Positions 34,001-62,367 of a stretch of DNA of 64,000 nt are shown here, one piece after another (the first letter of the stretch is position 1; each line of letters opens with the position of its first letter). A model generated the notes under the pieces. The model was not told the origin of the DNA. It worked only from the letters and a program-made list of their open reading frames with translations, and did not search any database. The position numbers were made by a program, and so were the translations under genes. This DNA comes from Candidatus Omnitrophota bacterium (GTDB lineage Bacteria; Omnitrophota; Gorgyraeia; Aquiviventales; Aquiviventaceae): assembly GCA_016192545.1 (NCBI GenBank), contig JACPTX010000028.1, forward strand, positions 8,686 through 72,685, read 5' to 3'.

Positions 34001-36009
<2,009 letters not shown>

Positions 36010-39417: not shown

Positions 39418-39462
39418 GGTTTTGACTTTGTGGGGGGAGGTGTGGTATCGTGGTCGTCGCTG

Positions 39463-40419
39463 ATGTGGCCTCGCAGGATTGTCCTCCTCGCCTTCCTCGC
39501 GCTTGCCGTCGGGGCGCCGGAACAGGGTGAAGCCGGCTGGGTCTGGTCGCCGCAGACCGGCTGGATCGGCCCGTCCGGCGCGGTCAAGGACACCCCGGCG
39601 GAGCAGATGGCCCATGCCATGAGCTTCTTCCAGAAGCCGGACTACGACAAGGCGCGGATCGAGTTCAAGAAGCTCATCCGGCGCTACAAGGATTCCCCCG
39701 AGGCGCCCGAGGCCCAGTATTTCCTCGGCCGCTGCCATGAGGAGAAGGGGGATTACTACGAGGCCTTCCTCGAATACCGCAAGACGATCCAGGTCTATCC
39801 GTCCACCGTGCGGTTCAGCGAGGTCCTGGAGCGGATGTATCAGATCGGCAACTACTTCCTGAGCGGCAAGAAGCGCCGGCTGTTGGGGACGGCCGCGCTC
39901 CTGCCGGCCCGCGACAAGGCCATCGAGGTCTTCAAGGCGATCAGCGAGGAGGGGCCGTTCAGCGACGTCGGGGAGCTGGGGCAGTATAAGCTGGGCATCG
40001 CGCATCTGGCGCTCGGCGAATACGAGCAGGCGGTCGTCGCGTTCGAGCAGCTCATCGACCGCTACCCCGACTCGCCGCTCGTTGACGATGCGCGCTTTCA
40101 GCTGGCGCAGGCCAGCCTCAAGGGCACGTTCGAGCCCGGCTACGACCAGCACGCCACCGACCAGGCCATGGAGCAATTGCACGTCTTCGTGGAGGAATAC
40201 CCGGGCAGCGACCTCTCGCCTGAGGCGTCGGAACGCATCACGGGCCTTCGGGAGCGCCGGGCGGAGCACGAGTTTCAGGTGGGGCGGTTTTACGAGGACC
40301 GCAAGCAGTTCGCCTCCGCGCTGGTGTCCTATCGGGAGGTGGTAAGCCGCTACGCGGATACGTCCTGGGCCTCGAAAGCCACCGCCCGCATCGATGCCCT
40401 GGAGTCCAAGGTCCAATGA
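39463..40419 (+). CDS. bamD: BamD-like TPR protein (outer-membrane protein assembly factor)
   Basis: Signal peptide and TPR repeats with BamD-like pattern (...ARIEFKKLIRRYKDSPEAPEAQYFLGRCHEEKGDY..., ...AVVAFEQLIDRYPDSPLVDDARFQLAQ...). No lipobox Cys seen. Confidence 0.6.
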   Translation: MWPRRIVLLAFLALAVGAPEQGEAGWVWSPQTGWIGPSGAVKDTPAEQMAHAMSFFQKPDYDKARIEFKKLIRRYKDSPEAPEAQYFLGRCHEEKGDYYEAFLEYRKTIQVYPSTVRFSEVLERMYQIGNYFLSGKKRRLLGTAALLPARDKAIEVFKAISEEGPFSDVGELGQYKLGIAHLALGEYEQAVVAFEQLIDRYPDSPLVDDARFQLAQASLKGTFEPGYDQHATDQAMEQLHVFVEEYPGSDLSPEASERITGLRERRAEHEFQVGRFYEDRKQFASALVSYREVVSRYADTSWASKATARIDALESKVQ

Positions 40420-41003
40420 TGGTCAGCACGCAGAAGGCAGAATGCAGAAGGCAGATCATCTCCCGGATATTCCTCCGCTGCTTCCTGCCTACTGCCTCCT
40501 GCCTCCTGCTGGCGGGGTGTGGCTACACGACACGGCCGGGGCTGGCCGCGCATCTGAAGACCATCTACGTGAAGCCCATCACGAACAAGATTGACCTCAC
40601 CCAGCTGACGAACGACTACGATCAGATGCCGATCTACCGGCCCGGGATGGAAACGACGATCACCAAGGCGATCGTCGAACGGTTCCAGTTCACCGGGCTC
40701 ATGCGTCCGGCCAGGCCTGAGAAGGCGGACAGCCGCCTGGAAGGGGAGCTGGTGACGTTCCGGCGGGATGCGTTGCGCTACAACGCGTCCCGGCAGGTCG
40801 AGGAATGGCGGCTGAGCATCGTCCTCAACCTGACGTTCTACGACCTGCACAGCAACACCGTGACGTGGGAAGAAACCAGCTTCACCGGCGACACGACCTA
40901 CTTCGCGCTCGGGGCCAACGCGAAGTCCGAAGCCACCGCCCTTGACCTGGCCATCACAGACGTCGCCCGCCGCGTGGTCGAACGCACCGTCGAAAACTGG
41001 TGA
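40416..41003 (+). CDS. lptE: LptE-like LPS-assembly lipoprotein
   Basis: Lipobox (LLAGCGY). Size and position immediately upstream of holA fit the lptE-holA pairing. Start overlaps the bamD stop (ATGATG). Confidence 0.55.
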   Translation: MMVSTQKAECRRQIISRIFLRCFLPTASCLLLAGCGYTTRPGLAAHLKTIYVKPITNKIDLTQLTNDYDQMPIYRPGMETTITKAIVERFQFTGLMRPARPEKADSRLEGELVTFRRDALRYNASRQVEEWRLSIVLNLTFYDLHSNTVTWEETSFTGDTTYFALGANAKSEATALDLAITDVARRVVERTVENW

Positions 41004-41004
41004 T

Positions 41005-41109
41005 CCCACGCCCTAGCTGGGCTCGCCTTCGGCGAGCCGCGAACATGACTGCGGCCTTCACACGTGTGAGTGTTCGCCAGCCCGGACGGGCTGGCAGCCA
41101 GGGCGTGGG
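41005..41109 (+). other. highly structured 105-nt intergenic element exactly filling lptE-holA spacer: outer 10-bp inverted repeat enclosing three perfect hairpins
   Basis: Outer IR CCCACGCCCT (41005-41014) / AGGGCGTGGG (41100-41109). H1 GGCUCGCC-UUCG-GCGAGCC (~41019-41039). H2 CGAACA...(CACACGUGUG)...UGUUCG (41040-41076). H3 GCCAGCCC-GGAC-GGGCUGGC (41076-41095). Confidence 0.4.
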
Positions 41110-41898
41110 ATGATGGCCCCCTCATCAGGACCGGGGGTGTATCTCCTCCTCGGTCCTGACCGCCTCCGCAAGCGATCCCGCCTCGAGGCCCTCGCGAACG
41201 CCTGCGCACCCAACCTCCTCGACCGCCACCAGTTCAGCGCGGCGGAGTGCGCGCCGGCGTTTCTTGCAGGGCTCATCCGCGAGCAGCCCGCCGCCGGCCG
41301 CTGCAAGCTCATCGTGATTGACGACGCCCACCGCCTCAGCCGCGAGTGCGTGGAGGTACTGGTGCGCCATCAGGAGGTCGTGCGCCAATTGGCCTGCGTG
41401 GTGGTGATGACGGAGCACGACGTCGAGGCGAAGCACCCGCTGACGGCCCTCCGACCCTGCTCGACGGTGGAGGAATTCCGGGATGCCGCGCCGGACGCCA
41501 AGCAGGGCTTTGCGCTGGTGGAGGCGATTGGGCGGCGGGATGTCGCGGCAGCCCTCCAGGCGATGAACCGGGAGCTGGCGGAGGGCAGGGAGGCGGTCGA
41601 GCTCTTCGGGCTGCTGGCGTGGCAGCTGCAGCGCTGGCTGACGGTCGGCCACCTGCTGGAACGCGGCCTTCCGCGTCAGCAGATCGCGGCGGCGACGAAG
41701 CTCCAGCCGTGGCTGATTGAGCGGATGAGCGGCGAGCTGGCCGGCCGGCCGACCGCGTGGCTGAGACGGATGGTGCAGCGGTGCTGGGAGCGGGACGTCG
41801 GGGCCAAGACCGGGCGCGTGATCCCGCGGCTGGCGCTGGAAGAGCTGATTGTGGAGCTGTGTCTTGTCAGTTCGCCTTCGAGGCGAGCTGTTGCATGA
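41110..41898 (+). CDS. holA: DNA polymerase III delta subunit
   Basis: 262 aa, ...VYLLLGPD... start, ...LIVIDDAHRL... and a delta-subunit-like C-terminal helical domain. Conserved lptE-holA context. Confidence 0.7.
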   Translation: MMAPSSGPGVYLLLGPDRLRKRSRLEALANACAPNLLDRHQFSAAECAPAFLAGLIREQPAAGRCKLIVIDDAHRLSRECVEVLVRHQEVVRQLACVVVMTEHDVEAKHPLTALRPCSTVEEFRDAAPDAKQGFALVEAIGRRDVAAALQAMNRELAEGREAVELFGLLAWQLQRWLTVGHLLERGLPRQQIAAATKLQPWLIERMSGELAGRPTAWLRRMVQRCWERDVGAKTGRVIPRLALEELIVELCLVSSPSRRAVA

Positions 41899-54787: not shown

Positions 54788-55468
54788 ATGCTTGAAGCGC
54801 GGCATGTGCACAAGACGTACCGCACCGGCGCGGTGCCGCTGCATGTGCTCAAGGGGGTCAACCTGACGGTGGCACCGGGGGAGTTCGTCGCGGTCACCGG
54901 CCCCTCCGGCGCCGGGAAGTCGACGCTGCTGCACGTGCTGGCGGGGCTGGACGTGCCGAGCCAGGGCGACGTGCTGTGGGAAGGCCGGTCCCTGGCGAAG
55001 ATGACCGACCGGCAGCGCGCGCACTTCCGTAATCGGACGATCGGGGTCATCTTTCAGTTCTATCATCTGCTGCCGGAGCTCTCGGCGCTGGAGAACGTCA
55101 TGCTGCCGGCCCTGGTGGAGGCCCAGGAGGGCCGCCGGGAGCTGCGCCCGCGGGCGCTGGAGTGCCTGGAGCAGGTGCGGCTGAAGGCCCGCGCCGCGCA
55201 CAAACCCTCGCAATTGTCGGGCGGGGAGCTGCAGCGGCTGGCGATGGCGCGCGCGCTCATCAACCGCCCGAAGGTCATCTTCTGCGACGAGCCGACCGGC
55301 AACCTCGATTCGCAGACCGGGCAGGCGGTGATGGACCTGCTGGTGGATCTGCATCAGCGGCAGCACATGGCGCTGGTGCTGGTGACGCATGAGCACGCGT
55401 TTGCGCAATTGGCGGATCGGTGGCTGGGGCTGCAGGACGGGCAGTTCGCACATGAAGCCGCAACTTAG
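54788..55468 (+). CDS. lolD: lipoprotein-releasing system ATP-binding protein LolD
   Basis: ABC ATPase Walker A (GPSGAGKST), signature ([15 protein letters not shown]), Walker B ([12 protein letters not shown]). Operon context with lolE. Confidence 0.85.
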
Positions 55469-60683: not shown

Positions 60684-60727
60684 AAAAGTGACAGTCACTT
60701 TTTCCCGAAAAAGTGACTGTCACTTTT
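60684..60727. repeat. tandem pair of 19-bp palindrome AAAAGTGAC(A/T)GTCACTTTT (motif 2), centres 25 bp apart
   Basis: Copies at 60684-60702 and 60709-60727, 20 nt after the clpC stop and 14 nt before the mlaE ATG. Confidence 0.6.
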
Positions 60728-60740
60728 CCTGTTGCCGCGG

Positions 60741-61538
60741 ATGAAAGTGTCCCGGATCGCCGTGCCCGTCGCCGTGGCGGGCGCCTGGATGGTGGAGCTG
60801 CTGGAATACGCCGGCCACCTGGGCCTCCTGCTGGTCCAGTCGGTGGGCGGGTGTTTCCTGCGGCCGCTGCGCGTCAAGTCGATAGGCTACGAGCTCCTGA
60901 AGATCGGCGCGCAGTCCTGGTTCATCGTCTCCCTCTCCTTGCTCTTCGTCGGGATGGTGCTCGCGTTCCAGAGCGCCTACCAGATGAAGCGGCTGGCCGC
61001 GGAAATCTACATCGCCAGCCTCGTGTCGCTCTCGGTGGTGCGCGAGATCGGGCCGGTCATCACCGCCCTCATCGTCGCCGGCCGCGTCGGCTCGGCGATC
61101 GCCGCGGAGCTGGGCACGATGAAGGTGACCGAGCAGATCGACGCGCTGGTGACGCTGGCCACCGATCCGGTCCGCTACCTGGTCGTGCCGCGCCTGCTGG
61201 CCGCGGTGGTGGCCTTGCCGCTCCTGACGCTGTGGGCGGATGCGGTCGGCATCCTGGGCGGGATGCTCGTGGGGACCATGAAGCTCAGCATCCTGCCGAG
61301 CCTGTACTGGAAGATGACGACGCTGCCGCTCGTGTTCAAGGATCTGGGCTCCGGGCTGCTCAAATCCCTTGTGTTCGCGGTCATCATCTGCGTGGTGAGC
61401 TGCCTGGAAGGGTTCCGCACGGAGGGCGGGGCGGAAGGGGTGGGCCGGGCGACGACGAAAGCCGTCGTGTCGTCGTTCATCCTGATCATCGCGGCCGACT
61501 GTTTCTTCACCGCGCTCTTCTACTTCGTCGGGCGATGA
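60741..61538 (+). CDS. mlaE: ABC transporter permease MlaE
   Basis: 265 aa, 5 TM helices, typical MlaE/TTG2B pattern (...GPVITALIVAGRVGSAIAAELGTMKVTEQIDAL...). Confidence 0.85.
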   Translation: MKVSRIAVPVAVAGAWMVELLEYAGHLGLLLVQSVGGCFLRPLRVKSIGYELLKIGAQSWFIVSLSLLFVGMVLAFQSAYQMKRLAAEIYIASLVSLSVVREIGPVITALIVAGRVGSAIAAELGTMKVTEQIDALVTLATDPVRYLVVPRLLAAVVALPLLTLWADAVGILGGMLVGTMKLSILPSLYWKMTTLPLVFKDLGSGLLKSLVFAVIICVVSCLEGFRTEGGAEGVGRATTKAVVSSFILIIAADCFFTALFYFVGR

Positions 61539-61542
61539 GCGC

Positions 61543-62367
61543 ATGATTGAGATCGCCGGCCTCACGAAGTCGTTCAACAGCCATCAGGTCCTCGACCGCC
61601 TGAGCCTCACCGTCAAGACGGGCGAGACCCTGGTCGTCATCGGGCGCTCCGGCTGCGGCAAGTCCGTCCTGCTGAAGCACATCATCGGGCTGATGAAGCC
61701 GCAGGAGGGCTCCATCATCATTGACGGGATCGACGTGACCAAGCTCTCGGGGCGCGCCTTGGACGTCCTGCGCAAGCGATTCGGCATGCTCTTCCAGGGC
61801 GCGGCCCTCTTCGACTCGCTGACGGTCTGGGAGAACGTGGGGTTCGCCCTGCACGAGCACACCTCGACGGAGGAGGCCGCGATCCGCGAGCGGGTGCGCG
61901 AGTGCCTGGCGCTCGTGGGGCTGGAGGGGGTGGAGGAGCTGATGCCCTCGGAGCTGTCCGGCGGGATGCGCAAGCGGGTGGGCCTGGCGCGCGCGATCGC
62001 GATGAACCCGGATATCATCCTGTACGATGAACCGACGACCGGGGTCGATCCCATCATGGGCGACGTCATCAACGACCTCATCATCGGCCTGCGGGACCGC
62101 ATGCGCGTCACCTCGGTCGTGGTGACGCACGACATGGCCAGCGCCTACAAGGTGGCGGATCGCATCGCCATGCTTTACAATGGGGGCATCGTGGAGGTCG
62201 GCAGCCCGGAGGAGATCCGGCAGTCCCGGAATCCCGTCGTGCAGCAGTTCATCCAAGGCAAGGCCGCGGGGCCGATCCAGGAGGGCCTGCCGGACCGCCG
62301 CATCCTGTCGCGCTGGCGCAAGCTGCCGTGGAAGAGCCAGCGGAATCCGGAGGAACCGGAAGTCTGA
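61543..62367 (+). CDS. mlaF: ABC transporter ATP-binding protein MlaF
   Basis: Walker A (GRSGCGKSV), signature (LSGGMRKRVGLARAI), Walker B (IILYDEPTTGVD). Confidence 0.9.
   Translation: MIEIAGLTKSFNSHQVLDRLSLTVKTGETLVVIGRSGCGKSVLLKHIIGLMKPQEGSIIIDGIDVTKLSGRALDVLRKRFGMLFQGAALFDSLTVWENVGFALHEHTSTEEAAIRERVRECLALVGLEGVEELMPSELSGGMRKRVGLARAIAMNPDIILYDEPTTGVDPIMGDVINDLIIGLRDRMRVTSVVVTHDMASAYKVADRIAMLYNGGIVEVGSPEEIRQSRNPVVQQFIQGKAAGPIQEGLPDRRILSRWRKLPWKSQRNPEEPEV

Follow-up and report, generated by a model that had tools for sequence, protein, structure and literature searches.

In the window, by which we mean the whole 64,000-nucleotide stretch of DNA analyzed here, the list of open reading frames and their Pfam matches give the gene order bamD (39430-40419), lptE (40416-41003), holA (41110-41898), rpsT (on the minus strand) and murJ. 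The forward-strand lptE (Pfam LptE PF04390, E = 6e-9) encodes a protein identical to the NCBI protein with locus tag HYY91_03125, which assigns the window to a Candidatus Omnitrophica MAG. Downstream and on the same strand, holA encodes the delta subunit of DNA polymerase III (Pfam DNA_pol3_delta_C, E = 1e-17); its N-terminus aligns with those of relatives, and its start codon is the ATG at 41110 or the ATG at 41113. The predicted HolA has 262 aa, versus 289 aa in the relative L188 and 353 aa in the relative L002, and in the alignment to L002 a central segment is missing and the N-terminus is shorter. Upstream, bamD and lptE overlap in an ATGA (40416-40419), which is unoccupied.

A sequence-only reading of the window had drawn attention to a 105-nt structured stretch that exactly fills the spacer between the lptE stop codon (41001-41003) and the holA ATG (41110), and this description proved accurate. 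The underlying unit is 107 bp long (41004-41110, assigned to neither strand), so that the A of the holA ATG lies within it. It is bounded by perfect 11-bp terminal inverted repeats (TIRs), TCCCACGCCCT on the left (41004-41014) and AGGGCGTGGGA on the right (41100-41110), which match at 11 of 11 positions, and it is bracketed by a 3-bp direct repeat, TGA, at 41001-41003 and again at 41111-41113. The outer repeat had been read as 10 bp: these arms are present, with CCCACGCCCT at 41005-41014 pairing with AGGGCGTGGG at 41100-41109, but T41004 and A41110 make the repeat really 11 bp long, and beyond a single A.C mismatch the helix is extended by four further pairs between GCTG (41016-41019) and CAGC (41095-41098). 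The region therefore reads TGA-TCCCACGCCCT-A-GCTG-[three hairpins]-CAGC-C-AGGGCGTGGGA-TGA-TGG on the forward strand. The sole ORF spanning the element has 37 codons, leaving it without coding capacity for a transposase.

The 105-mer folds with a minimum free energy (MFE) of -69.8 kcal/mol on the forward strand (z -6.1) and -71.2 kcal/mol on the reverse strand (z -7.4), and none of 200 dinucleotide shuffles reached its MFE, which bears out the earlier impression that the nesting of its repeats is non-random. The fold is a compact four-way junction of abutting helices, with zero to one unpaired nucleotide between them and with the stop and start codons sitting at the base of the 11+4-bp helix. 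Hairpin 1 lies where it had been placed (41020-41038), with an 8-bp stem, GGCUCGCC/GGCGAGCC; the UUCG tetraloop attributed to it does not form, since the cUUCGg motif is out of register and the stem closes on a UUC triloop instead, and the loop sequence is not conserved among copies of the element. Hairpin 2 (41039-41077) has an 8-bp stem, GCGAACAU/GUGUUCGC, and a variable 23-nt loop that does contain CACACGTGTG (41059-41068), although the CACACGUGUG palindrome noted earlier is specific to the window copy. Hairpin 3 (41078-41093; CCAGCC/GGCUGG around a GGAC loop) is as first described.

The identities offered for this structure by the sequence-only reading included a cis-regulatory RNA for holA and a small noncoding RNA, with a search of Rfam as a check. 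A cmscan of 40700-41400 at E <= 10 returned only two chance matches, at 13 and 9 bits where the gathering scores are 50 and 153. Nothing resembling a promoter or a terminator was found within the element, nor any hairpin followed by a U-tract, as in an intrinsic terminator: beyond the outer stem the sequence continues as AUGAUGGCCCCC. We also considered a Shine-Dalgarno role for AGGGCGUGGG upstream of the holA ATG, and dropped it from the core model for its weak complementarity.

Empty junctions and the target-site duplication

In the closest relatives, whose LptE is 85% and 71% identical to that of the window, the lptE-holA junction is an empty site, ...CTGGTGATGG..., in which stop and start overlap. 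The closest homologue (L001; 85%) has a single TGA overlapping ATG without any spacer, ...GAAAACTGGTGATGGCCC..., and L188 (71%) likewise has an empty TGATG overlap, so that both sites take the form CTGG/TTGG-TGA-TGG/TGA with one TGA. Set against AACTGGTGATGGCCC in L001, the window reads AACTGG-TGA-[107 nt]-TGA-TGGCCC: it carries exactly 110 nt more than the empty junction, namely the 107-nt T...A unit and a second TGA. A more diverged junction, in L179, is also empty and has a TAA stop, while two more distant relatives (L002 and L190) have short unrelated spacers at this position. [quoted passage not shown]

Comparison of these junctions shows that the lptE-holA junction was ancestrally ...CTG GTG ATG G..., with the TGA stop of lptE overlapping the start of holA, and that insertion of the element at this TGA duplicated it as a 3-bp target-site duplication. 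The first TGA copy (41001-41003, forward strand) is the one found singly in the empty sites of L001 and L188. Because the first base of the element is T and its last is A, the upstream TGA still terminates lptE, and the terminal A joins the TG of the second copy (41111-41113, forward strand) to form a new ATG for holA; this second copy also supplies the A of the ATG at 41113. The ancestral start of holA was probably the ATG of the TGATG, and holA most probably keeps its native start. Together with the ATGA shared by bamD and lptE, the ancestral lptE/holA overlap implies that stop and start codons overlapped at both junctions of this operon before the insertion.

Nine filled/empty pairs were found when flanks were joined with a single TGA and matched against all collected loci and the window: two for the window insertion and seven for other copies of the element. 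Removing an element together with one TGA restores the orthologous junctions, and the insertions are polymorphic between close relatives; copies of the family offer insertion-polymorphism markers for Omnitrophota populations. One of the nine pairs involves an unoccupied junction in the window itself: at the orthologue of the ATGA at 61543-61546, between the ORFs 60713..61546 and 61543..62367, the metagenome contig L141 carries a copy of the same family (near 2044).

Copies, flanks and fold of the family

Within the 64-kb window the element is present once. Exact and mismatch patterns, blastn-short and a covariance model run with its filters off found no second copy there; the model recovered only 41004-41110, at 107.7 bits, and its next-best matches (35741-35816 and 54929-55024; at most 19 bits) lie within apparent coding sequence and were rejected. 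A single copy, together with no expression and no conservation, would in the earlier reading have left only a fortuitous cluster of GC-rich palindromes. Being single is true of the element in the window but not of the family: elements of this type are found at over 80 unrelated junctions between genes, in Omnitrophota metagenome-assembled genomes (MAGs), in one MAG labeled Planctomycetales and in environmental metagenomes, some from groundwater. The MITE-like element that had been offered as a further option is supported by the TIRs, the 3-bp target-site duplication, the empty orthologous sites and these many dispersed copies.

A genome scan for CCCACGCCCT-N70-100-AGGGCGTGGG, with the flanks left free, found at least 15 copies in four Omnitrophota MAGs and the MAG labeled Planctomycetales, and a metagenome scan with the 11-mers, again with free flanks, found 71 loci, many of them from the sample that yielded L001. 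The copy number per related MAG ranges from at least 3 to at least 10, and it exceeds 20 in single metagenomes; a scan of a plasmid collection gave no match to the element. The genome scan fixed the inner 10 nt and the metagenome scan 11 nt at both ends, so the uniformity of the TIRs among these copies is by construction. Matches to the covariance model, which imposes no such pattern, include variant TIRs (TCCCACACCCT, TCCCCCCACCT, TCCCACCACCT and CCCCACCCCCT), and all family copies have window-type TIRs or close variants of them. Relative to the flanking genes, the element interior can lie either way round. Tandem arrays occur rarely, with neighbors sharing a single TGA and at times belonging to different subfamilies, and nested copies have entered the loop of hairpin 1 in another copy, duplicating CGA there (tandem and nested loci: L108:234-554, L122:2486-2679, L166:227-330 and L113:4728-4834).

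The flanks, which were free in the scan, are TGA/TGA in 78 copies, 44 on one strand and 34 read as TCA/TCA on the other. Rarer flanks are TGG or its complement CCA (three copies), TAA (one copy) and a few degenerate cases, and the covariance-model matches also include CGA/CGA and, as its complement, TCG/TCG. Since the direct repeat keeps its length while its sequence varies, it is a true 3-bp target-site duplication and does not belong to the element. The base before the TGA is A in 61 of the 68 unique TGA copies, giving ATGA. Of 50 copies that were informative, 35 have an ORF of at least 80 codons ending at the TGA and another such ORF starting at the rebuilt ATG, compared with 5.2% of 2881 random ATGA sites from the same loci. 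Family copies are thus overwhelmingly located in (A)TGA stop/start overlaps of co-directional genes, an enrichment for which purifying selection, targeting or the two together could be responsible.

Nearly all family copies fold into an outer stem and three hairpins, at -60 to -84 kcal/mol, and several subfamilies reach this same overall fold with wholly different stem sequences. When the four-helix structure is imposed on 25 copies of the window type, 95.8% of its cells are paired and 14 pairs have changed on both sides, with a covariation score of 0.177 versus 0.061 in shuffles, a value reached by none of 500 shuffles; controls in which the structure was slid along the alignment were about 43-51% paired. 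This scoring used a manual structure, since RNAalifold on the raw MAFFT alignment missed hairpin 2. By helix, hairpin 1 has 99.5% of its cells paired over the 25 copies with three pairs doubly changed, while compensatory changes affect four of the eight pairs of hairpin 2 and five of the six pairs of hairpin 3. The three internal hairpins are therefore maintained by paired changes.

G.U pairs number 75 (2.7%) when the element is read in the sense direction and 129 (4.5%) in the antisense direction: they are rare on both strands and rarer on the sense strand, which gives no sign of a fold selected specifically in mRNA, and since the asymmetry is confounded by orientation bias and shared ancestry, we do not count it as positive evidence. 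The low G.U content and the two internal orientations argue against a fold selected only in mRNA. The upkeep of pairing could have a cause at the DNA level, such as a requirement for transposition or the correction of near-palindromes by template switching; alternatively, it could reflect selection for harmless folding in either orientation. For the discovery of RNA motifs the family is a caution: structures in operon spacers that covary and are very stable can be MITEs.

An open frame across the element

Lengths of 101, 104, 107, 110, 113 or 116 nt account for 62 of 68 copies. All of these are 3n+2, a length at which the second TGA falls in the reading frame set by the start codon of the original overlap, and the frame across the element reads ATG ATC CCA CGC CCT ... 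GGC GTG GGA TGA. A mini-ORF of about 37 codons is open from the start codon to the second TGA in 55 of the 68 copies but in only 25 of 68 when the element is flipped (Fisher p = 3e-7); its start codon is ATG in 49 of the open copies, GTG in three, TTG in two and CTG in one. The family copies share ancestry, so that these and the other counts of copies are not fully independent, a problem that is lessened but not removed by counting clusters: among 35 clusters with interiors at least 80% identical, the mini-ORF is intact in 27 versus 11 when flipped, and the length is 3n+2 in 32. The intact mini-ORF is missing in 13 of the 68 copies, and the broken frames include those of copies 1-2 nt off in length.

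In the window copy the mini-ORF (41000-41113, forward strand; 37 codons, VIPRPSWARLRRAANMTAAFTRVSVRQPGRAGSQGVG, plus stop) runs from a GTG at 41000, forming an overlapping GTGA with the lptE stop, to the TGA at 41111-41113, which overlaps the ATG at 41110 as ATGA and the ATG at 41113 as TGATG. It must start at this GTG, which has no obvious Shine-Dalgarno sequence. Across the family, only the peptide ends encoded by the TIRs are constant (IPRP... and ...QGVG), while the interior peptides are unrelated between subfamilies; judging from these translations, the conserved property is the open frame and not a protein. From the frame statistics we infer that the mini-ORF is translated.

Translation of the mini-ORF could relay translational coupling across the insertion. 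Ribosomes finishing the upstream gene would re-initiate at the old start codon and enter the mini-ORF, and its translation would melt the -70 kcal/mol cloverleaf, whose outer helix would otherwise hide the start codon in its base. These ribosomes would then stop at the second TGA and re-initiate on the rebuilt ATG of the downstream gene, such that coupling would be handed from the first gene to the mini-ORF and on to the second gene via two ATGA-type overlaps. A relay of this kind would make the insertion near-neutral to the operon and so account for the persistence of copies at overlaps. In the window copy the first hand-over would rely on the GTG and is less certain, and holA may be reached directly.

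We consider it highly probable that 41004-41110 is a MITE copy inserted into the lptE/holA overlap, with both codons rebuilt and with coupling putatively relayed through the mini-ORF. For the window, this removes a candidate regulatory RNA and makes the lptE-holA spacer a recent mobile insertion. More broadly, the family illustrates how a selfish element can settle in the most compact part of bacterial genomes, the stop/start overlaps of essential operons (here bamD-lptE-holA), apparently breaking neither gene. The evidence for selection on frame and length also offers a testable example of coupling relayed through an inserted mini-ORF, an idea so far attached mainly to the mycobacterial interspersed repetitive units (MIRUs).

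Known repeats, mobilization and alternative explanations

In structure the element qualifies as a MITE: it is small, it is bounded by TIRs and a target-site duplication, and its site is empty in relatives. Among known MITEs, Correia elements duplicate TA. The window family shares with the bacterial MITEs Correia/NEMIS, ERIC, RUP, Nezha and Chunjie a length of about 100 bp, TIRs, flanking direct repeats, a stable predicted fold and filled and empty sites (PMC3184786, PMC10969869), and Chunjie, which generates a 9-bp duplication, is reported inside an operon that it leaves undisturbed (PMC3184786). Unlike these, the window family has a 3-bp duplication with a strong preference for TGA, occupies stop/start overlaps and rebuilds both codons through its terminal T and A, carries a 3n+2 open frame, and forms a conserved four-way junction with three hairpins rather than one long hairpin. 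Two reviews (PMC3184786 and PMC10969869, the latter from 2024) mention no MITE that targets stop/start overlaps, and our literature search found nothing specific on such a MITE, nor on any MITE in Omnitrophica. The family thus appears to be an undescribed one specialized for stop/start overlaps.

The closest functional analogues of the mini-ORF relay are the MIRUs, a resemblance of function only. MIRUs are often tandemly repeated and are used in VNTR typing. They are intergenic within polycistronic operons (Supply et al. 1997, summarized in PMC3184786), and the ends of the MIRU ORF overlap the adjacent operon genes; they also show short direct repeats, empty and filled sites and GC-rich internal inverted repeats (PMC3184786). 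The same type of overlap is seen in the window, where GTGA (41000-41003) and ATGA (41110-41113) bound the 37-codon ORF. However, MIRUs are 40-100 bp long with imperfect TIRs only and tetranucleotide direct repeats (PMC3184786), whereas most copies of the window family have perfect 11-bp TIRs; the family also has a 3-bp duplication of TGA and a defined cloverleaf, and its hosts are Omnitrophota MAGs and one MAG labeled Planctomycetales rather than mycobacteria.

Mobilization presumably occurs in trans, by a DDE-type transposase that would make 3-bp staggered cuts and prefer TGA. Transposition of the IS5 family and of the PIF/Harbinger type produces 3-bp TNA/TWA duplications. These are candidate mobilizers only: the 3-bp duplication agrees, and TGA (complement TCA) and TAA fit TNA, but the TGG and CGA duplications of the window family do not, and to our knowledge the window TIR, TCCCACGCCCT, bears no resemblance to IS5-family ends. 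Among the collected loci we found no autonomous insertion sequence with matching TIRs, TIR pairs 200-5000 bp apart being separate MITE copies, and an all-against-all comparison of 847 ORFs from these loci revealed no multi-copy transposase-like ORF.

A conserved cis-regulatory RNA or small RNA serving holA or the lptE-holA operon, for example as an attenuator, a processing site or a protein-binding leader, would account for the very stable and non-random fold, for structure kept by paired changes among copies, and for a position within the operon transcript. We nevertheless give this idea very little credence. The empty junctions of L001 and L188 exclude a conserved RNA specific to holA, the spacers of L002, L190 and L189 are unrelated, and the same element separates the genes of more than 80 unrelated pairs; its interior can point either way with respect to gene sense, and the Rfam search and the lack of promoter-like or terminator-like sites described above lend no support to a regulatory or a small noncoding RNA. 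The open frame (55 of 68 copies) and a length periodicity of 3 might instead suggest that the mini-ORF is a real small-protein gene to which the nucleotide structure is secondary. This has scarcely any likelihood: the peptide is constant only at its TIR-encoded ends, substitutions arrive as base-paired couples, and the two orientations of the interior give different peptides. As for a fortuitous cluster of GC-rich palindromes, the 67% G+C of the window would favor chance pairing, but the shuffles, none of which reached the MFE, and the more than 80 homologous copies elsewhere have already refuted it.

Two further possibilities concern how the element moves and what it does for its host. One is that the element is a REP or REPIN repeat moved by a RAYT (HUH Y1), or is handled by an IS200/IS605-type single-strand transposase that recognizes hairpins and inserts 3' of TGAT. 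Its hairpins are GC-rich and conserved in structure rather than sequence, its length of about 100 nt and doublet-like symmetry recall a REPIN, its very low G.U content suggests pairing at the DNA level, and the insertion point beside TGA(T) is constant. Direct repeats of varying sequence, however, are what DDE transposition with staggered cuts should leave, while HUH elements create no duplication. The family combines perfect TIRs with 3-bp direct repeats that vary (TGA, TGG, CGA and TAA), lacks a GTAG-type REP head, and gives back the orthologous junctions when it is removed in silico together with one TGA; we therefore regard such an origin as very improbable. The other possibility is a domesticated module that benefits the host, in which the cloverleaf would hold stop and start together and tune the expression ratio or stabilize the mRNA. 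The 11+4-bp helix has the stop and start codons on either side of its base, the fold is conserved, the constraints on frame and length imply selection after insertion, and a different long palindrome occupies the same junction in another lineage. Yet insertions that are polymorphic between close relatives, tandem and nested copies that look like selfish spread, and G.U pairs without a sense-strand bias make domestication unlikely.

An extension of the MITE reading, which we advance tentatively, is that the family is an 'operon-safe' lineage, in which T/A ends, a TGA target, a 3n+2 length and a stop-free frame would together turn one overlap into two, and in which the four-way junction may be the substrate of a structure-specific transposase. 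If this were true, the elements would be natural insulated operon spacers and would provide a handle on coupling in an uncultured phylum.

REPs are single hairpins of 21-65 bp without the signature of TIRs plus duplication, and RAYTs are thought to move them. The window family resembles REP/BIME sequences, which are GC-rich extragenic palindromes between operon genes that can affect mRNA stability (PMC3184786), in being composed of GC-rich palindromes between operon genes, but its 3-bp duplications of variable sequence set it apart, and membership among the REP/REPIN repeats fails. The matches listed from the genome scan comprised two unrelated repeat families, of which one is that of the window. 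The other, with dozens of copies among these matches in the Pseudomonadales MAG MT5bin.1 (L003-L112, JAZFYA01 contigs), is a repeat of about 123 nt, GTTGGAAC-CCCACGCCCT...AGGGCGTGGG-GTTCCAAC, which also occurs in Halioglobus, Halieaceae and Oceanicoccus MAGs. Conserved sequence continues outside it and its flanks are mostly CG/CG, and it is apparently one section of a larger repeat unit; we rejected this high-copy repeat as a family member, since only the 10-mer is common to both and belongs there to a larger, different unit. REP-like palindromes were also seen in Pseudomonas genomes (L016, L018, L022 and L114), of the form (GGC)TCCCACGCCCTTCGG(A/G)CAGAA...GCCCGAAGGGCGTGGGA, which contain the same 10-11-mer without TGA flanks and are probably an unrelated REP-type repeat.
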